39,122 nt of DNA from a virus: the IMG/VR virus record IMGVR_UViG_3300038607_000022. One strand, written 5' to 3'. The position numbers were made by a program, and so were the translations under genes. Positions 1 to 39,122 of the stretch are shown here, piece after piece. Each line of letters begins with the position of its first letter. Within the stretch, counting starts at the first letter, position 1. Under the pieces are notes generated by a model. That model ran no database searches. It was not told the origin of the DNA and saw only the letters and a program-made list of their open reading frames with translations.

Positions 1-37
1 ACGGAGCGCTTGCGTCTCCGTTAATGAGGGTTATGAA
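1..37 (+). promoter_or_regulatory. Conserved hairpin-plus-tail element, copy 1 (same bases as 38996-39032)
   Basis: ACGGAG-CGCTTGCGT-CTCCGT hairpin followed by TAATGAGGGTTATGAA. A paralogous copy lies on the minus strand at 30040-30076 with compensatory stem changes. Confidence 0.5.
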
Positions 38-127
38 CTCATCGGAGCAGTTAAATAGAGTTTATGTAGTAATATAAATCTAAAGCTTAACTAGAGATAA
101 GAAAATGAAAACAATACAAGATACAGA
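1..127. repeat. Terminal direct repeat, identical to 38996-39122 (circular closure or assembly overlap)
   Basis: Base-by-base identity of the first and last 127 nt. The ORF starting at 105 begins inside the repeat and continues after it. Confidence 0.95.
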
Positions 128-1789: not shown

Positions 1790-1913
1790 GGAATAGTATC
1801 GCCGCTCTATATGGGCGGCAATAACACGTATCTAATGCGCAAGCTCGCGCAGTCGCATTTAGGAAGGGTTATTTACTCAACTAAAATAAATACGAAATAA
1901 TTGCATTTTATAC

Positions 1914-4910: not shown

Positions 4911-5279
4911 ATGGCTGTTATAATCGTTAGCAACCAAAGCAACATAGCAAAGGGCGAAATAGTCACTATTGTTGAAGACTCTCACCAATTTACACATAAC
5001 GAGTGTATGGCTGAGTGGATAAGTAAAGGTAATTCACCACAAGCATGGTTTAGAACCTTTTCTCTTGTTAGAGTTGCAGATAAAACAAAAGCAGAGCTAG
5101 AGTATCTTACCGAGCCACTTTATAACAACGCTACAGCAGAGCGAGAAATTTTAAATATAAGAAAGTGGTTTTTTATCGAACCGCCAGAGCAATCCCCGCA
5201 TTACATCGACCTGTTAGACAGTGGCGAAGTTTCAACCATGTTTGAAGAGTGCCTTCCTTATCTTCGAGAGCGTACGTAA
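4911..5279 (+). CDS. Hypothetical protein
   Basis: Same-strand ORF whose stop overlaps the next start (TAATG). Confidence 0.6.
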   Translation: MAVIIVSNQSNIAKGEIVTIVEDSHQFTHNECMAEWISKGNSPQAWFRTFSLVRVADKTKAELEYLTEPLYNNATAEREILNIRKWFFIEPPEQSPHYIDLLDSGEVSTMFEECLPYLRERT

Positions 5280-6754
5280 TGCCCACGCAAATAACAAAAA
5301 CAGTTAAGCCTAGCGGCGGTGACTATTCGTTGCTCAGTACGGCATTAGCGGCTGTGCCTGTTGACTTAATAGCCGCAGACGAGCAGTGGACGATAGAGTG
5401 TTACACATTTGCTGGCGGCTTGGATGATAGTGTTAGCATTAGCGGGGATAATAACGCAGACTCAACAAGGTACTGGGAAGTGGTAGCAGCATCAGGACAC
5501 GAGTACGATTATGCAACTGGTGCAGGATTTAAGCTGGATTATCAGGCGCAGGCATCTGGAGGTACTTTTTTCGCATCAACTAACAGTGATGCATATTTTA
5601 AGCTGAAAAATATCGGCATATTTAGATCAACAGTTACGAGCCAAAAACCTTTGCAGACATCGGCTGATAATATTGAAATAACAGGTTGTACTATATGGAA
5701 TAATAGTGGATCTAGAGTTGTTATGGATTTAGGATTGGTTAATGACTCGACTATAAATAATAATTTAATTATACAAGCTGGTACATACGATTGCGTCAGG
5801 TTGGATAGAGTATTTTCTGGCACTTTATTTCAGAATAATACAATTATATCGCTGGGTGGTGGCGATGCGTTTGAGCCTGATACAACTACAGCAGGGGTGT
5901 TAAAGAATAACTTATATATTGGTGGCGGTGGTTTTAATTCAAACGGTAATATATGGGATTCAGCTAGTGATTATAACGCATCTCAAGACAATACAGCGGT
6001 CGGTGGTAATTCACTGCAAAACCGCACAACAGCAGATTTAGTTGATTACGCTGGGGGAGACTATAGAACAGCGGCAAGTAGCGCATTAGCTACAGCGGGC
6101 GAAGGCGGAACGTTTATCGGTTTTGCTTTAGAGAGTGGAGGCTCTGGCGAAACCATCGTTCTTGATAGCGGCTCTTACCTTCTCAGCGGTACAGATCTAA
6201 ATCTTATAGCATCGTTAAATATATCTACGACAACAGGCAGTTACACACTAACTGGCTCTGATGCGAATTTAATAGCGGCATATAAAGAAATTGCTAACAC
6301 TGGAAATTACACACTAACGGGAACAGATGTCACTTTAGTATACACTCCCAGCGGTGGTGGTGAGTCTATAACTCTAGATAGCGGAACCTATTCGATGGTA
6401 GGTCAAGACAAAACACTGTCCGCTAATTTTGTTCTTAATGCCCAAGCTGGTAGTTATCAGCTGTCAGGAACAAACACTCCAATTAAGTATAATGGTAGTA
6501 TTCATGTTGATAGCGGTTTTTATAGCTTAACTGGCAGTGATTTAAGTCTATATTCTAACTATGTTATAATTGCATCAACAGGTGATTACGAATTAACGGG
6601 TTCACCTGTAACGCTTAGGTATTCTGGTGATGTTTTTCAGAATATCGGCGCGGTCACTGCTGGGTTTGCTGATAGCGGCATATCGACAGCATTTAAACAG
6701 GACTCTGTAACAGCAGGGTACAAAGCAAATTCAATAACAGTGAGATTTAAATAA
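5279..6754 (+). CDS. Right-handed beta-helix (pectate-lyase-like) protein with a C-terminal array of about 22-aa repeats
   Basis: N-terminal VKPSGGDYSLLSTAL and N/G/T-rich rungs. Seven GxYxLxGxDxxL repeats at roughly 6150-6630. ATG 5279 overlaps the upstream stop. Confidence 0.6.
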   Translation: MPTQITKTVKPSGGDYSLLSTALAAVPVDLIAADEQWTIECYTFAGGLDDSVSISGDNNADSTRYWEVVAASGHEYDYATGAGFKLDYQAQASGGTFFASTNSDAYFKLKNIGIFRSTVTSQKPLQTSADNIEITGCTIWNNSGSRVVMDLGLVNDSTINNNLIIQAGTYDCVRLDRVFSGTLFQNNTIISLGGGDAFEPDTTTAGVLKNNLYIGGGGFNSNGNIWDSASDYNASQDNTAVGGNSLQNRTTADLVDYAGGDYRTAASSALATAGEGGTFIGFALESGGSGETIVLDSGSYLLSGTDLNLIASLNISTTTGSYTLTGSDANLIAAYKEIANTGNYTLTGTDVTLVYTPSGGGESITLDSGTYSMVGQDKTLSANFVLNAQAGSYQLSGTNTPIKYNGSIHVDSGFYSLTGSDLSLYSNYVIIASTGDYELTGSPVTLRYSGDVFQNIGAVTAGFADSGISTAFKQDSVTAGYKANSITVRFK

Positions 6755-8980: not shown

Positions 8981-10399
8981 ATGACAGTATCAGTACATAG
9001 AAAAGAATACACAGACGGGTTAGATGATGTAACCAAAAATCGCGACGCCGTAAAAGGTGAGCGAGCAATCAAGGATAAGCGCACGGATTACCTGCCGCCA
9101 CTCCCTTCTATGTGTTGCACATACCGACAAACCGAAAACGGCAGCCAAGTTATACAGGGCAGCACTATCACTGGTGAAGGTCTAGCAAGTTATAATAAGT
9201 ATTTATCCCTTGCCTATTTTTATGGAGCTAGTGGTCGTACTGTAGATGGGCTGACCGGGCTTATATTTTCCAAACAGCCAGAAATGGAAATAGATCCGCG
9301 TGTTGAATATCTCATTGATAACGTCGATGGCAAAGGCAATTCTTTACGCAAGCAATCACAAAAAGCGTGTGAAGAAGCTTTTATTACGCCTAAATCTGGC
9401 TTATTAGTTGATTATCCGAATGTCTCACAGCCCGTATCGGTAGCCGATGCTGAACGATCAAACCTACGCCCGAAAATACTACACTATAACTATGAATCTA
9501 TCGTTAACTGGCATTATGACGTAGTAGACAACCAACAAAAGCTAACATTGGTTGTGTTAGCAGAGCAGCGAGAGACATTAGTCGATAGATTTAAAATCGA
9601 GTATGAGACCGTTTATCGCGTATTGGAAATAATCGAGGGGAACTATTATCAATCTGTTATCAATGAGTCGGGAGAAGATGTAGAGCCTCAAGAATTGGTG
9701 CTAGTTAACGGCTCACCTGTAAATGAAATTCCTTTCTTCTTAATCGAGGTAGGCTCGCAAGATAAATCAATCATTAATGATTTAGTTGATGCTAACTTGT
9801 ATCACTATCGTACTTTTGCTGATTACGGCGGTAAATTACATTATTCGTCATTTGTTATTTATTACGAGACAGGCGCTATTGATGGTGATCAAAACATGGT
9901 CATCGGTAACGGTGTTAAGTGGTCTAATCAATCAACAGATGCGACTTTTGGCGTCTTACAGCCAGACGGTAACGCAGATTCGCATATGATGGCCCTAAAA
10001 GACATGGAAAATCGCATGGCTGCTTTAGGTGCTGAAATGCTCAAGCCTAGAGGCAGTGCGGCAGAGTCGGCAGAAGCTAAATCACTCGACCAGGTAGCGC
10101 AAAACTCAACGGTTTCTAGTGTTGCTATCAATGTATCAGAAGCTTACGAAAAAGCGCTGGATTTTGCTTTACGTTGGATGGGTGGAGAGGGTGAAAACGT
10201 CTATCATCTATCAACTGACTACAACCCTAAAGGATTAGCTGGTAATGATTTGACAGCATTAGTAAACGCTTTACAGCTAGGCGCGATTTCTTACGAAACA
10301 TTCTACGAGAATCTTCAAAGAGGAGGTGTTGCAAATCCTGAGCGAACTATTGAAGATGAGCAGGCGCAAATACAAGGCGCTGAGCTAGGGCTTGAATAG
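8981..10399 (+). CDS. Portal protein
   Basis: 472 aa, directly after TerL and before a MuF-like gene. Acidic C-terminus. Confidence 0.75.
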   Translation: MTVSVHRKEYTDGLDDVTKNRDAVKGERAIKDKRTDYLPPLPSMCCTYRQTENGSQVIQGSTITGEGLASYNKYLSLAYFYGASGRTVDGLTGLIFSKQPEMEIDPRVEYLIDNVDGKGNSLRKQSQKACEEAFITPKSGLLVDYPNVSQPVSVADAERSNLRPKILHYNYESIVNWHYDVVDNQQKLTLVVLAEQRETLVDRFKIEYETVYRVLEIIEGNYYQSVINESGEDVEPQELVLVNGSPVNEIPFFLIEVGSQDKSIINDLVDANLYHYRTFADYGGKLHYSSFVIYYETGAIDGDQNMVIGNGVKWSNQSTDATFGVLQPDGNADSHMMALKDMENRMAALGAEMLKPRGSAAESAEAKSLDQVAQNSTVSSVAINVSEAYEKALDFALRWMGGEGENVYHLSTDYNPKGLAGNDLTALVNALQLGAISYETFYENLQRGGVANPERTIEDEQAQIQGAELGLE

Positions 10400-11963: not shown

Positions 11964-12299
11964 CTAAAGCACCTCTGTTAATATACGCCAGTTTTTTAAT
12001 GTCATTCCGTCGAATTCAGCCTCAACAGGTTTTCCGTTTAATTGATCAATCGAGTTGCATTTTGCATCCCTCAACAAGTCGCTAACAAACCGCATAACCT
12101 CATCATAGCCTCTGCTGCGGTCTTCTTCTGTCCATTTGCAGTGCTCTGTATGTTTTACCTGGTTAGCGTCCCAAGATGATTTATTATCACCACAGCCCCA
12201 GCCATTACCACTAATTGTAACTGTCAAGCCTAAGCAAGCGTCCTGATAACCACCAAGACCAAACTTTACATTTTCTAATTTGCCCAGTTTCTTTTCCAT
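11964..12299 (-). CDS. Hypothetical protein (island gene 2)
   Basis: Strong AGGAG RBS. 111 aa with six Cys. No family recognised. Confidence 0.65.
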   Translation of the reverse strand: MEKKLGKLENVKFGLGGYQDACLGLTVTISGNGWGCGDNKSSWDANQVKHTEHCKWTEEDRSRGYDEVMRFVSDLLRDAKCNSIDQLNGKPVEAEFDGMTLKNWRILTEVL

Positions 12300-12358
12300 T
12301 TCAATCTCCTGTTTTTAACGAGTATAAACCTCAGCTTTTAATTAACAAATCCGATCAG

Positions 12359-12739
12359 TTAACTTAAATATCGACCAGAAGAAAACCAGTCTGATTTTAT
12401 TTTCTCGGCGTGCGTTAAGCATTTTAGCATGGTGTCTGCCTCTCCTTTCTCGGTTAGAGGCATCCCTTCTGGAAACATCCATCCGCCCAGTGTTGTTGTT
12501 TTTTTAGCGAATAAAAAGCGGCTCACCTTTTTGGTCGAGAATGGGACTTTAATCTTTTTGTGGTAGTAGTGATTAAAGTTGTGAGGATTGCACGTAACTA
12601 CCGAATAAACATCTCCCGCATGAAAGTCGCCATATAAAGACCTGCCATGCTTATCGTAGTAGCAAGTATCCATTGAACCGTGCTTTATTTTCTCGTCTTT
12701 GTAAATAAGCTCAAGAATCATTCTGATTATGTTGCGCAT
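12359..12739 (-). CDS. Hypothetical protein (island gene 1)
   Basis: AAGGG RBS 7 nt before the ATG. First gene downstream of the consensus leftward promoter. Confidence 0.65.
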   Translation of the reverse strand: MRNIIRMILELIYKDEKIKHGSMDTCYYDKHGRSLYGDFHAGDVYSVVTCNPHNFNHYYHKKIKVPFSTKKVSRFLFAKKTTTLGGWMFPEGMPLTEKGEADTMLKCLTHAEKIKSDWFSSGRYLS

Positions 12740-28857: not shown

Positions 28858-29042
28858 TGTATAACCCTCAAAGACTCAGGAATCCTACTGTAACTAAGCT
28901 TTGCGACAACCTCTTCAAGCGAGTCTATGTATTCGTTTTGTTCGTCTATCTCTTTTTGTTGAGACTTGATAATTTTATCAATATCTTTTGAGTAGCAATT
29001 GTCTTGCGCTCGTAGCCATTCAAATGTTTTATCTTTATTCAT
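28854..29042 (-). CDS. Hypothetical protein
   Basis: Overlapping start and stop with both neighbours. Confidence 0.6.
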   Translation of the reverse strand: MNKDKTFEWLRAQDNCYSKDIDKIIKSQQKEIDEQNEYIDSLEEVVAKLSYSRIPESLRVIQ

Positions 29043-29616: not shown

Positions 29617-29711
29617 AACATACACCAAACAACAAAAGTAATTAAAATTACATTCAATGTAAAAAATATTACCTGCTGCCTTCTAGCTTTTAAATTATCG
29701 TCGTGTCTCAT
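29613..29711 (-). CDS. Micro membrane protein (32 aa), below the ORF-track cutoff
   Basis: ATGA overlap with the upstream gene. One hydrophobic segment (VIFFTLNVILITFVVWCML). Confidence 0.4.
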   Translation of the reverse strand: MRHDDNLKARRQQVIFFTLNVILITFVVWCML

Positions 29712-29884
29712 AATTCAAATTCCTTCTCGATTTCTGCCAGCTCTTTTTGATGTTCTAGCAATCTACGGCGCTCTGTTTTTTCTTTCGCTGTTTGAGTCTG
29801 GCGTCTTGGCGTCATGCTCTCAGCGTTAAGGGTTTTATAAAATGTTGCGAACTCCGCTTGTGTTAGTGTGTTTGCGTTACTCAT
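29708..29884 (-). CDS. Hypothetical charged protein (58 aa)
   Basis: ATG 29884 is preceded by AGGAGA. The track start at 29920 is GTG with no RBS. Confidence 0.6.
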   Translation of the reverse strand: MSNANTLTQAEFATFYKTLNAESMTPRRQTQTAKEKTERRRLLEHQKELAEIEKEFEL

Positions 29885-29940
29885 TTCACTTATCTCCTGC
29901 TGTTTTATTAAACTTAGCACAATAAATACAGTAATGTGGT

Positions 29941-29968
29941 TTGACCAGTGAGATTATTTTGCTATTAT
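29941..29968 (+). promoter_or_regulatory. Sigma70 promoter on the plus strand inside the leftward operon (TTGACC-N16-TATTAT)
   Basis: Hexamers at 29941-29946 and 29963-29968. Points away from all neighbouring genes. Confidence 0.55.
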
Positions 29969-29974
29969 TGAGTT

Positions 29975-30042
29975 GAAACTTTTATCTCCAGTTTCTATCG
30001 ATGTTTCGCCCGGTCGTGGTTAGTTGGTGGCCGGGCTTTTTT
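29975..30042 (+). ncRNA. Candidate antisense small RNA of about 67 nt
   Basis: Runs from the predicted start to the GCCCGG-N17-CCGGGC hairpin plus T6 (30008-30042). 5' hairpin GAAAC-N11-GTTTC. Contains no ORF. Confidence 0.5.
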
Positions 30043-30076
30043 ATAACCCTCACTAACAAGGACGCAAGCGCCTTGT
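30040..30076 (-). promoter_or_regulatory. Conserved hairpin-plus-tail element, copy 2
   Basis: The minus strand reads ACAAGG-CGCTTGCGT-CCTTGT TAGTGAGGGTTATAAA. Starts 10 nt after the stop of the 30086..30340 gene. Confidence 0.5.
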
Positions 30077-30085
30077 AGTTTCGAG

Positions 30086-30340
30086 TTATGTGTTCTTCCC
30101 AATGTTATAAATAGTTGCAACCTGCGAATCATTAAGTCCGCGCTTTTTCGCTCCTTCTAAAGCATTTATTACCGTTTGCACTCCATGGTGGTAAATATCC
30201 AACTCTTCGGCATCATGGTATCCACCAAGGTAATCTAAACACCCTTTAGCTATTGCTATGGCATCATCAAAACACATAACAACAGGCTCAATCGGACTTG
30301 CTGTAGTTGGGTTTTTATCTTCGTCTTGCATCTTCGTCAT
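30086..30340 (-). CDS. Hypothetical protein (start may be ATG 30331)
   Basis: Same-strand ORF. AAGGA sits closer to optimal spacing for the second ATG. Confidence 0.6.
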   Translation of the reverse strand: MTKMQDEDKNPTTASPIEPVVMCFDDAIAIAKGCLDYLGGYHDAEELDIYHHGVQTVINALEGAKKRGLNDSQVATIYNIGKNT

Positions 30341-30936: not shown

Positions 30937-30972
30937 ACTATAAACCAAATTTAAATGCCATGTGGTCGGATG
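30937..30972 (-). promoter_or_regulatory. Bipartite promoter-like box CATCCGACCACAT-N17-TATAGT
   Basis: On the minus strand the box is at 30972..30960 and TATAGT at 30942..30937. Identical architecture occurs at 37892-37927 (+). Confidence 0.5.
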
Positions 30973-31007
30973 AGTGTTTGAACTTACGTTAAGGCTCGAA
31001 AGCCTAC

Positions 31008-31868: not shown

Positions 31869-31916
31869 TGCCTGATTTTATAAACTCTACGCATTAATAT
31901 AACACCAAAACCCCGT

Positions 31917-32150
31917 TTAACTGCTCCGATGAGTTAAGCCTCGCTCGATAGCTCTTTGCCGATAATGCCTAATCTGATCACTATTCAATCCAAATTTACG
32001 GCATGATTCATTAATGCCATGCTCCTCGCTATACAGCCATATCTTCCGCACTAGCTCTGGTTTTGCTTCTCTGCTGCTATTCTTGCTGCGTTTTATTTCC
32101 GGCTCTGTATTGCCTAGGGAGAATTTTTCGATTACTGATAGGTTAAACAT
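31917..32150 (-). CDS. Small HTH-type DNA-binding protein
   Basis: GINESCRKFGLNSDQIRHYRQRAIERG is HTH-like. Start overlaps the methyltransferase stop. Confidence 0.55.
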   Translation of the reverse strand: MFNLSVIEKFSLGNTEPEIKRSKNSSREAKPELVRKIWLYSEEHGINESCRKFGLNSDQIRHYRQRAIERGLTHRSS

Positions 32151-34092: not shown

Positions 34093-34499
34093 TACAAACC
34101 CCTTTGAATTAAATCAGCGCAGACATTGTTTATCTCATTTTTGATCATATTTCTAAATCTTTCAAGATAAATACTGGGCAGTTCATTTTCCTCAAGACTC
34201 AATACTGGCCACCCCATCATTTGGGCTCTTCTTTGTTTCCAGTCCCAAGCCGTCCAATAAGTCATTTCATTGAGCTTCTTTATAAGGTTTAAATTTTCAT
34301 TTATGGCTTCGGTCATTTTTTCAGCTTCATAGCCGTGCATATTGAAATGGTAAGAACATGTTTTTCTTGCGGCGCTGACGCTTGCTAATAATTTACAATT
34401 GTGCTGTTCGCATCGACCCCAATAACTAACCTTTTCGGGCTTTTGCTCTTGATTTACCTTCTCGTAAAGCTTTTCAACAGCAGCGGTTTTACTCACCAT
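34092..34499 (-). CDS. Hypothetical protein
   Basis: Translationally coupled in the operon. Cys/His-containing N-terminal part. Confidence 0.6.
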   Translation of the reverse strand: MVSKTAAVEKLYEKVNQEQKPEKVSYWGRCEQHNCKLLASVSAARKTCSYHFNMHGYEAEKMTEAINENLNLIKKLNEMTYWTAWDWKQRRAQMMGWPVLSLEENELPSIYLERFRNMIKNEINNVCADLIQRGL

Positions 34500-35001
34500 G
34501 ATAATACCCGTCTAAAACTTTTGATAAATTAGCAGGCTTAACCAGCCATTCTATTGTTAACTTAAAAGGCTTTCTGTCACCAGCCTGAACTTTACCCATC
34601 AAGAAATCACTTTGCTTGACTGCTTCAAATAAATCGCGCCAAGACTGTTCAGTAAAAAAGTCAGCGCGTGTCAGACGGTCTAACTTACCTTTTAAATCAT
34701 CAGATATTACCGTTTTGAGCTGCGCGTATGTCCCTTGATATGTTTCGTTGTAGATATCGCAAACACGCTGGGCTGATACGTTTACTGCTTTCTGCTGGCG
34801 CTTAACTTTACTCGCTCCGCCTTTAACCTCATCAACTCTTTCTGTTATTTTAAAGAATAGGTCTATTGGCATTTTAAACACACCATCAATAATTGCGTGC
34901 TCATCTGTAACCCATGTGACAGTCATCACTTCATTTGCTGGGACTTCCACTTTTAAATCGTCTGTTATTTGACGATAGGGAAAATTAAACCTTACCTTCA
35001 C
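34489..35001 (-). CDS. Hypothetical protein, possible replication initiation/organiser protein (tentative)
   Basis: GTG 35001 is preceded by GGAGA 7 nt upstream. The C-terminal ...FKLTIEWLVKPANLSKVLDGYY recalls phage replication-associated proteins. The track start at 35040 overlaps the upstream gene. Confidence 0.5.
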   Translation of the reverse strand: MKVRFNFPYRQITDDLKVEVPANEVMTVTWVTDEHAIIDGVFKMPIDLFFKITERVDEVKGGASKVKRQQKAVNVSAQRVCDIYNETYQGTYAQLKTVISDDLKGKLDRLTRADFFTEQSWRDLFEAVKQSDFLMGKVQAGDRKPFKLTIEWLVKPANLSKVLDGYYHGE

Positions 35002-35012
35002 TTTATTGTCTC

Positions 35013-35210
35013 CTAATAAATTATGCTTTCTTTTCCACACTCGCCACAGTTGACTCTAGCTCCATAAAAATCTTTTTTTCCAGTGGCGTCTAAAAGGTCA
35101 GCGTCTTCGCCAGTGAATTTGTTTGTTAATCCACAATGCCCACACTTAAAACCAACCGGTAGAAGTCCGCGACCATCAGAGTACACTTCCAACATGTCAC
35201 TAAGAATCAT
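35013..35210 (-). CDS. Zinc-ribbon protein
   Basis: CGHC...CGEC pairs. AGGAG RBS. Confidence 0.6.
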   Translation of the reverse strand: MILSDMLEVYSDGRGLLPVGFKCGHCGLTNKFTGEDADLLDATGKKDFYGARVNCGECGKESIIY

Positions 35211-35670: not shown

Positions 35671-36040
35671 TTACCTCAAATTCCCTCCAAGCAACATGCA
35701 ATTGCTGTAAAGCCGATTCGGGCATTGCATTATAAATCTGATACTGAGTTACTAGTACAATCAGACAGTGCGGCAATGTTTAAGCTGAGAGCCTATATTG
35801 GATTAATCCTTGGGTGATACTCAATAGTTTAAACGTGGAAAGCTCTGCTAGTGTCGAAAGATAAAAAGTTTCCAACCAGAAAGAAAGATTCTGGCCTTCA
35901 AAGCTCTACAGACCGCTAGGTTATTGCTAGAAGTGAAAAGCCTTTAGTTGAATTTTAATAATTCTCTTTAGGCTTATTATGCCTTTAAGATACGACATAG
36001 GTTTTGCTAGACACTTATCTATAACTAATAAGGTGATTAA

Positions 36041-37667: not shown

Positions 37668-37889
37668 ATGAGCAATGTAAAAAGTATTTTCCCTGCAAAT
37701 GATTTCAGTGTCATTTGTGATAACGCATCTAAAGAGGTCGAGTGCGGGATTATTATTGGGTATGACGAAGAAGGTGCACTTTGCGTTTATGGTGGCGGAC
37801 TGCTTGACGGTAGGCAACCCTTACAAAAGGATTGGCTGTGGATGATTGAAGCTTTCAAGTTAAAAATGATGAATGGTGATTATTGCTAA
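37668..37889 (+). CDS. Hypothetical protein
   Basis: AAGGAATAAACAAAATG initiation region. Confidence 0.65.
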   Translation: MSNVKSIFPANDFSVICDNASKEVECGIIIGYDEEGALCVYGGGLLDGRQPLQKDWLWMIEAFKLKMMNGDYC

Positions 37890-37891
37890 CA

Positions 37892-37927
37892 CATCCGACC
37901 ACATAACACTAAATAATGATATATAGT
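37892..37927 (+). promoter_or_regulatory. Bipartite promoter-like box CATCCGACCACAT-N17-TATAGT
   Basis: Box at 37892-37904 and TATAGT at 37922-37927, 30 nt upstream of ATG 37957. Confidence 0.5.
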
Positions 37928-38736: not shown

Positions 38737-38814
38737 CCTTTTAAATAAGCGGGCGCGGCTGTTTGCGCTCCGTTTGATTTTGTTGTTAGCAGTGAAATAG
38801 CGAGGCACAGCATT

Positions 38815-38976
38815 ATGATATGTAACACATGCAAGTTTAAAAGCGATTGCCAGAAAGCAACTGAAAACGGTAATTGTAGATATTACGAAAAACAAGAGGG
38901 TACGCCCATTAACGAGCACCCTCTAAAAAATGAAATTATAGATAAAATTAAAAGTGGTGAAATAGTTTTTAGCTAA
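38815..38976 (+). CDS. Small Cys-rich protein (53 aa), below the ORF-track cutoff
   Basis: GAGG 9 nt upstream. Cys pattern CNTC...C...C. Preferred over the antisense ORF 38707..38919 because it shares the strand of all neighbours. Confidence 0.45.
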   Translation: MICNTCKFKSDCQKATENGNCRYYEKQEGTPINEHPLKNEIIDKIKSGEIVFS

Positions 38977-38995
38977 TTCCTGCTAACACGTAATT

Positions 38996-39122
38996 ACGGA
39001 GCGCTTGCGTCTCCGTTAATGAGGGTTATGAACTCATCGGAGCAGTTAAATAGAGTTTATGTAGTAATATAAATCTAAAGCTTAACTAGAGATAAGAAAA
39101 TGAAAACAATACAAGATACAGA
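38996..39122. repeat. Terminal direct repeat, identical to 1-127
   Basis: Exact identity with the window start. Confidence 0.95.

Follow-up and report, generated by a model that had tools for sequence, protein, structure and literature searches.

The viral DNA of IMG/VR record IMGVR_UViG_3300038607_000022, a stretch of 39,122 nt that we refer to as the window, carries between its early genes a hairpin element, two copies of which had been noticed in a preliminary description made from the sequence alone. Our follow-up finds this to be a real, selected and structured element of a new sequence family, present in three copies, each of which consists of a covarying hairpin clamped by an orphan Shine-Dalgarno (SD)-like box and its complement. 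So far, the element is confined to a single clonal lineage. As regards its role, we tentatively read it, with a probability of about 40%, as a boundary signal on the sense strand of the mRNA that would serve processing, stability or insulation at the ends of early-gene cassettes.

The hairpin proper, here called P2, is built of 3 bp, a bulged T, 6 bp, a second bulged T and an apical mini-hairpin (Table 1). The sequences first quoted for copies 1 and 2 were recovered at the positions given for them, and positions 1-37 and 38996-39032 are indeed one copy, as the first 127 bases of the window (1-127) recur as its last 127 (38996-39122), so that the window represents a genome of about 38,995 bp that is either circular or terminally redundant. 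The three stem differences between these two copies are all compensated by Watson-Crick pairs, as first described, and a fourth pair can be added. The 16-nt "tail" after the stem matches at 14 of 16 positions. Outward of the second bulged T, however, the helix goes on for another 3 bp, ATT/AAT in copy 1 and ACT/AGT in copy 2, so that one of these two tail differences, A for G, is itself part of a compensated pair (T-A to C-G). The 9-nt "loop" has the identical sequence that was reported for both copies; it is, however, not unpaired but pairs internally as CG-CTTG-CG with a bulged T. Copies 1 and 2 also resemble each other over a further 12 nt upstream (TAACACGTAATT versus TAACTCGAAACT).

By folding each intergenic gap of at least 40 nt, we found a third, diverged copy in the rightward arm, which does away with the idea that each divergent operon holds a single one. 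It reads TAACACGTA-TCT-AATGCG-...-T-CGCATT-T-AGG-AAGGGTTAT and has the same two 3'-side T bulges as the others around a wholly different 6-bp stem; its apical region, CAAGCTCGCGCAG, is unrelated to the CGCTTGCG of copies 1 and 2. The three copies were aligned with MAFFT without structural guidance, and copy 3 fits the others column for column. In this alignment P2 is completely paired (30 of 30 cells, i.e. ten pairs in three copies), six of the ten pairs show double changes, and two positions have three different Watson-Crick pairs among the copies. When the 3' partners are slid by 1-3 columns, by contrast, only 33-45% of the cells pair, with at most two covarying pairs, and no more than 0-1 of 500 column shuffles reached the observed pairing or covariation values. 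RNAalifold independently predicts essentially the same structure. The sequence adjacent in the spacers has fully diverged among the copies and the flanks of the hairpin are invariant. That both T bulges are kept while the stems change argues for a specific selected architecture. Between paralogous copies within one genome, these compensatory changes show that the P2 fold is under selection, which strengthens the argument from covariation first made with two copies.

The flanks common to the three copies read TAAC.CG.A ... GA.GGGTTAT and are complementary to each other, so that (A)UAAC.C can pair with G.GGUUA(U) in a second helix, P1. Both helices are found in the minimum free energy (MFE) structure of each copy folded alone, P1 (6-7 bp) closing a small purine-rich internal loop below P2 (10-11 bp), for a total of 17-18 bp. 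This internal loop of 3x2 nt (G.A / GA) is kept in all copies, together with the two U bulges on the 3' side. A K-turn was considered for the internal loop and rejected by inspection, as a 3-nt bulge with GA after it is lacking on the 5' strand. The 3' flank is the SD motif of this phage itself: in gene sense, AGGGTT(T)A is found at four genuine ribosome-binding sites (RBSs), with the layout AGGGTT(T)A-N4-ATG at 2363, 12750(-), 27828(-) and 28868(-), and at the three elements, none of which has a start codon at the working N4 spacing. Copy 1 does have an ATG 2 nt after GGGTT, opening a frame of 14 codons, in place of which copies 2 and 3 have ATA and ATT, and the putative peptides downstream of the box are unrelated among the copies. 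It is because the flanks are an orphan SD-like box and its complement that they stay fixed while the stem drifts. A CRISPR-repeat mimic was dropped since the stems differ among the copies and the flanks are fixed. The sequence TGAGGGTTATACA at 28858-28870(-) was considered as a fourth copy and proved to be an ordinary RBS.

All three copies are intergenic, stand at the end of an upstream cistron and point in the sense of the surrounding genes, which agrees with the first account of two of them, and the next start codon lies 67-156 nt beyond each. A stop codon precedes the hairpin by 19 nt in copy 1 and by 9 nt in copy 2; in the latter it is the TAA of ORF 30086-30340 at 30088-30086, which lies inside the 5' flank and hence in the 5' strand of P1. 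Copy 1 occupies a 123-nt spacer between ORF 38815-38976 and ORF 105-269 (=39099-), and copy 3 a 214-nt spacer after ssb (1227-1739). The distances of the copies from the strand switch are 2.9, 4.8 and 5.7 kb. The MFE of copies 1, 2 and 3 is -13.1, -18.1 and -12.3 kcal/mol in sense versus -11.2, -11.9 and -11.6 kcal/mol in antisense, and the two G.U-type pairs (the outer pair of copy 3 and P1 of copy 2) can form only in the sense strand. These more stable sense folds, the sense-only pairs and the orientation of the copies with transcription favour an mRNA element, a preference that is modest because nearly all pairs are Watson-Crick.

Table 1. Positions and sequences of the three copies of the element and of their parts in the window.
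Feature	Coordinates	Strand	Sequence or remark
Copy 1	38983..39032	+	Covariance model 77.9 bits
Copy 1, 5' flank	38983-38992	+	cTAACACGTA
Copy 1, P2 hairpin	38993-39020	+	ATT-ACGGAG-CG-CTTG-CG-T-CTCCGT-T-AAT
Copy 1, 3' flank	39021-39032	+	GAGGGTTATGAA
Copy 1, P1	38983-38989 paired with 39023-39029		
Copy 1, re-read at window start	1..37	+	5' flank cut by window start; partial model match, 20.5 bits
Copy 2	30040..30089	-	Covariance model 74.9 bits; extends the coordinates first given
Copy 2, 5' flank	30089-30080	-	aTAACTCGAA
Copy 2, P2 hairpin	30079-30052	-	ACT-ACAAGG-CG-CTTG-CG-T-CCTTGT-T-AGT
Copy 2, 3' flank	30051-30040	-	GAGGGTTATAAA
Copy 3 (newly found)	1821-1875	+	Covariance model 67.8 bits
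Copy 3, 5' flank	1821-1830	+	aTAACACGTA
Copy 3, P2 hairpin	1831-1863	+	TCT-AATGCG-C..apical 11 nt..G-T-CGCATT-T-AGG
Copy 3, 3' flank	1864-1875	+	AAGGGTTATTTA

Within the window, the loop plus tail motif occurs only at copies 1 and 2 (chance expectation 0.01) and the flank pattern TAACNCG-N20-50-GGGTTAT has three matches against 0.06 expected. As had been proposed, we built a covariance model, using the three copies; run without filters on both strands of the window it returned exactly these three, the next best match scoring 9.9 bits. Outside the window this model was applied to about 1.6 Mb of fetched loci, related or candidate, obtained via Erf (80), NinB (4), homologs of ORF 30086-30340 (L086-L098) and relatives by TerL (L165-L171), and no copy was found in them. 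The relatives that could be fetched are all remote, none exceeding 68% identity in TerL, and have non-homologous early regions. The preliminary description would have taken a lack of conservation in related genomes as a refutation, which the absence from such loci formally is not. The exact loop plus tail motif has no match in IMG/VR and none in GTDB genomes, and the single match in a JGI metagenome (L085) was set aside as a chance match, being high-GC coding DNA without the stem. The flank pattern alone gave 66 matches in IMG/VR, none of them with the hairpin; they score 16-23 bits with the model despite being pre-selected for the flanks. Rfam 15 gave no match at gathering thresholds and, at E<=1, only a spurious miRNA match elsewhere, and a query with the PAPS-reductase-like protein of the rightward arm retrieved no relatives. 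At 31917-31950(-), only a tail-like GAGGCTTA and the 28 nt downstream are in common with the element, and there is no hairpin.

In the mechanism that we propose, P1 and P2 would stack upon each other, giving a nearly continuous helix of about 17-18 bp, broken by the internal loop and the bulges, that may be recognised as a signal for processing or stability. RNase III could cut this helix on one strand, as it does at the early-mRNA sites of phage T7, or, alternatively, the helix may simply block 3' exonucleases. By either route, long early transcripts would become cassette-sized mRNAs, each ending in a protective P2 hairpin, and cleavage would free the SD-like box, sequestered in the intact transcript, at or close to the new 5' end. 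Among the functions guessed at when the element was first noticed, the processing signal, then only a fallback, appears to be the best fit. Copies 1 and 3 are direct repeats 1.8 kb apart in the rightward arm, on either side of orf54-orf110-erf-ssb, and in every relative fetched (L086, L165, L166, L169) this slot (105-1739 in the window) is filled by a different recombination module (Erf+YqaJ, RNaseH-like exonuclease+SSB, YqaJ, Rad52/Gp157+SSB). As the two copies bracket a module that varies among relatives, the element may travel with exchangeable cassettes or delimit them. A strong promoter-like sequence, TTGATT-16-TATAAT, is predicted at 1914-1941, 40 nt downstream of copy 3, as would be expected if copy 3 ends a transcription unit.

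Among the known systems closest to the element are the RNase III signals of phage T7 (R0.3-R1.3, with R1.1 as the model substrate). These are sense-strand hairpins between early cistrons in which an internal loop sets an upper helix apart from a lower one and bulges are present, and they occur as several related copies per genome. Two traits of such sites are found here, namely an internal loop and bulges of the kind that restrict cutting to one strand and an intercistronic sense position in early mRNA. By contrast, there is no sequence similarity, the helix is about 17-18 bp long as against about two turns, and the conserved part is here the SD-like box with its complement. Cleavage of the T7 signals leaves a protective 3' hairpin on the upstream mRNA, internal loops or bulges being what confines RNase III to one strand; substrates of this enzyme can be coaxially stacked short helices, and a 34-nt hairpin is a minimal substrate of the E. 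coli enzyme (PMC1540722).

Several observations weigh against a boundary signal in mRNA. The combined helix is slightly short of the typical two turns; P1 lacks covariation support because the flanks are invariant, and it contains an A-G mismatch in copies 1 and 3. The fold z-scores of single copies are modest, from -1.2 to -4.0, the latter for copy 2, and, as all but one or two pairs are Watson-Crick, a hairpin at the DNA level is also possible. Finally, the element is absent from every relative checked (60-68% identical in TerL or 72% in ORF 30086), and the other assemblies of this phage (L088-L091; ENA ERZ27296250/53, JGI 3300038604 and SRA SRR5439156) are 100% identical to the window across 9-20 kb and therefore uninformative on conservation.

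Next in order, though unlikely, is a reading in which the copies act mainly at the DNA and evolutionary level as boundaries of portable cassettes, i.e. as recombination linkers with transcriptional punctuation for the swapping or excision of modules, in the manner of the promoter-early stem-loop (PeSL) cassettes of T4-type phages. The direct repeats around the variable recombination module fit such a role, and so do the mosaic spacers: 31908-31935(-) holds another occurrence of the 28 nt that follow copy 1, and both arms contain members of a second motif family, described below. PeSLs are composite motifs that recur between genes, each taking its start at the upstream stop codon and containing a stem-loop; they flank plastic, exchangeable genes and have been proposed to punctuate transcription and to mediate modular shuffling (PMC2839356); the start at a stop codon is matched by copy 2. 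PeSLs, however, possess a consensus sigma-70 promoter and a terminator-grade stem-loop and number about 50 per genome, whereas the three copies found here have mutually pairing flanks, no terminator features or U-tract in the stem region and no credible internal promoter (at best 8 of 12 consensus positions, without the T at -7, and nothing in copy 3); the strong promoter-like site stands by copy 3 only, and outside the element. Moreover, phages that exchange modules should share the linkers and no relative carries the element, and recombination linkers have no need of stem covariation or of conserved bulges.

We give a still smaller chance to a bolder reading that joins RNA and cassette, in which the element would represent a new class of RNA module, a portable "clamped hairpin" whose orphan SD is held by its own anti-SD across a specificity hairpin and read by a phage or host factor. 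The module would also delimit exchangeable early-gene cassettes and move with them. Examples of what it might be are a compact antiterminator or insulator that depends on a factor, or an mRNA stabiliser that recruits the 30S subunit.

It is improbable that the element works in translation, with P1 sequestering the SD-like box so that the structure would control binding of the 30S subunit, be it as the gate of a tiny ORF, as a standby or stabiliser site without a start, or as a decayed initiation region. The identity of the 3' flank with real RBSs of the phage and the complementarity of the 5' flank would suit this role, and the stop codon within P1 of copy 2 has the geometry of translational coupling. 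In a relative (L169), a hairpin directly adjoins GTGAGGATTT-ATG of a called gene; on account of that case, we consider a hairpin immediately before an SD to be a normal spacer layout in this phage group. Opposed to the translational role are the lack of a start codon at N4 spacing in any copy, the replacement of the ATG of copy 1 by ATA and ATT, the unrelated putative peptides and the distance to the next real genes. The SAS/ESAS repeats of cluster K mycobacteriophages are comparable in being SD-containing boxes repeated in one orientation in the non-structural half, with an inverted repeat directly upstream (PMC3203893). By contrast with our element, whose arms covary and which has no start at N4 spacing, SAS boxes lie 3-7 bp before real starts; a hairpin in ESAS was judged unlikely, its arms being conserved in sequence without covariation (PMC3203893).

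The preliminary description compared the element to nutL/nutR or put-type sites, whose transcripts alter RNA polymerase, by themselves or together with a phage protein, and thereby carry it through terminators. We regard such an antitermination role as quite doubtful. As in lambda nutL/nutR and HK022 putL/putR, transcribed cis elements with a hairpin and conserved, single-stranded sequence stand in sense in both divergent early operons, and the stems covary between copies, as is reported for putL and putR. In lambda, however, each early operon has one such site, close to its promoter and ahead of the terminators that it overrides, and it is the boxB loop that is conserved between sites and read by the N protein, whereas in the present element the flanks and bulges are conserved and the loop differs in copy 3. 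The put sites, which lie immediately after PL/PR, consist of two adjacent stem-loops (about 70 nt) with a direct action on RNA polymerase; here, there is one hairpin with a closing helix, in three copies far from the strand switch and not beside predicted promoters. One-mismatch matches to boxA (CGCTCTTTA-like) number 37 in the window, at chance level (26.9 +/- 4.7 expected), and are found near copy 3 only (1803-1811), none lying in sense near copies 1 and 2. No basic N-type protein with an N-terminal arginine-rich motif was found among 18 small early ORFs; the ORF directly downstream of copy 2 (29708-29920) does have an R-rich stretch, TERRRLLEHQK, but in mid-protein and within an acidic product. 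On the sense strand, none of the copies is followed by a convincing intrinsic terminator.

Because most pairs are Watson-Crick, the element could also be a single-stranded-DNA site exposed on the lagging-strand template in replication, whether attC-like, a priming site of the primosome/ssi type or a site for an HUH nuclease, although we hold this to be very improbable. If replication forks set out from an origin near the O-like gene (34489-35040), the sense strand of all three copies would serve as lagging-strand template, and the midpoint of copies 1 and 2 lies at 34536; transcription accounts equally well for this orientation. The conserved extrahelical T's and complementary AAC/GTT ends of the element recall the architecture of integron attC sites, and copies 1 and 3 flank a cassette, but the 7-mers TGCTAAC/ACATAAC/CAATAAC and GTTATGA/GTTATAA/GTTATTT do not, on inspection, fit the R-box consensus RYYYAAC...GTTRRRY. 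No integrase or other recombinase, primase or HUH nuclease was seen among the proteins scanned, which cover part of the ORFs, and the U.G-type pairs favour RNA.

We attach the same low probability to the absence of any present function, in which case the copies would be left over from duplicated spacers, their arms being kept complementary by template-switch (quasi-palindrome) mutation and not by selection. The presence of three copies only, in a single clonal lineage, without conservation outside it and in visibly mosaic spacers, would be understandable, but template switching would also erase the asymmetric T bulges, both of which are kept in all three copies while six pairs change, and the flanks are invariant beside spacer sequence that has fully diverged. 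Least probable of these alternatives is a sigma-70-type promoter (TTGCGT-16-TATGAA/TATAAA) with an overlapping palindromic operator: the conserved block of copies 1 and 2 ends exactly at the -10-like hexamer and a TTG in the hairpin apex has the right spacing, but copy 2 is the best match with 8 of 12 positions, the critical T at -7 is absent from all copies, copy 3 has no counterpart of the -35 box, the standard promoter scan listed no copy, and a protein-bound palindrome predicts conserved half-sites where those observed covary. An intrinsic (Rho-independent) terminator, also suggested at first, is rejected, as no copy has a U-tract after the stem (the tails are TAATGAGGG, TAGTGAGGG and TAGGAAGGG) and terminator scans did not list them. 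Also rejected are a T3-like promoter on the reverse strand (tail ATAACCCTCACTAA), with 14-15 of 23 matches versus 15-17 in shuffled genomes, and any promoter of the T3/T7 group, the start box (GGGAGA) not being conserved and no gene of RNA polymerase size being present (the largest ORFs, of 767, 649 and 636 aa, are all in the tail region).

The spacers around the three copies hold further signals. Copy 2 is followed by a hairpin predicted to act as a terminator for the opposite strand, and a candidate antisense small RNA of about 72 nt lies there inside the leftward operon (~29941-30048, +), with an extended -10 promoter (TTGACC-16-TGcTATTAT, 29941-29968), a 5' hairpin, a 10-bp terminator stem and a T6 tract that ends at about 30047 and overlaps the 3' flank of copy 2. 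Its position recalls the oop RNA of lambda, and it has no Rfam match. Some 200 nt before copy 1, at 38751-38780 (+), lies a hairpin that resembles an intrinsic terminator and has a T-tract, and a 7-bp G+C-rich hairpin without T-tract directly precedes copy 3 (1800-1818, +). The second intergenic motif family, ACWCATCSGASCA, has four genomic copies versus 0.18 expected, all in gene sense and near gene ends: 37-49(+) [=39032-39044], 31922-31934(-), 30963-30975(-) and 37889-37901(+). It is composed of two sub-pairs, CGGAGCA and CCGACCA, with one copy of each per divergent arm, and one of its members adjoins the tail of copy 1. The recurring 28 nt after copy 1 (36-63) are 89% identical to their counterpart, which comprises the 3' end of ORF 31917-32150 and spacer. 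Among the relatives, L086 has 92-nt direct repeats (9180-9271 and 9963-10054, 97% identical) that span the RBS and about 18 initial codons of small paralogous genes, including the homolog of ORF 30086-30340, and that end in inverted ACGCATAAC...GTTATGCGT.

The genome is organised around a strand-switch region at 35777-36040. The leftward arm (from ~35.8 to 27.5 kb) encodes an O-like replication protein, an HNH nuclease, a C5 methyltransferase, many small orphans and NinB, and the rightward arm, from 36.0 kb through the junction, encodes orphans, the PAPS-reductase-like protein, Erf and SSB, followed by terS, terL, portal and tail genes. Orphans make up most of the early proteins, and no tRNA or tmRNA was found by a search for them. 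There is no close cultured relative: the portal protein is at most 30% identical to those of GenBank phages, and blastn against GenBank phages matched only the ssb coding sequence (in Vibrio and Pseudoalteromonas phages). TerL homologs that are 60-68% identical come from Tara and Colwellia-associated assemblies, and the host is probably a marine gammaproteobacterium. Directly before terS, a 501-aa protein (5249-6754, +) has no Pfam or PHROG match, and three relatives (L166, L167, L171) have orphans of 532-540 aa in a similar position. Within the plus-strand structural block, two minus-strand ORFs (111 and 126 aa) at 11964-12739 (-), with spacers of 109 and 134 nt on either side, look like a moron-like island. 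About 30 occurrences of ~39-kb contigs are listed in index blocks. The complete identity of the assemblies across projects suggests either a single clonal strain or a common laboratory or spike-in source.

Should the element prove to act in processing or insulation, it would offer a first handle on how early polycistronic transcripts are organised in an uncultured, marine-type phage group whose early genes are almost all orphans. Its compact design (about 50-55 nt, with invariant flanks, conserved bulges and a free stem) makes it easy to probe by compensatory mutagenesis, and it could serve as a synthetic intercistronic part. As it stands on both sides of a variable recombination module, it is also a concrete candidate for the boundary of a cassette in the mosaic evolution of phages, and, if the less likely clamped-hairpin module were true, regulation at the RNA level would be tied to modular genome evolution in a siphovirus group without known regulatory signals.

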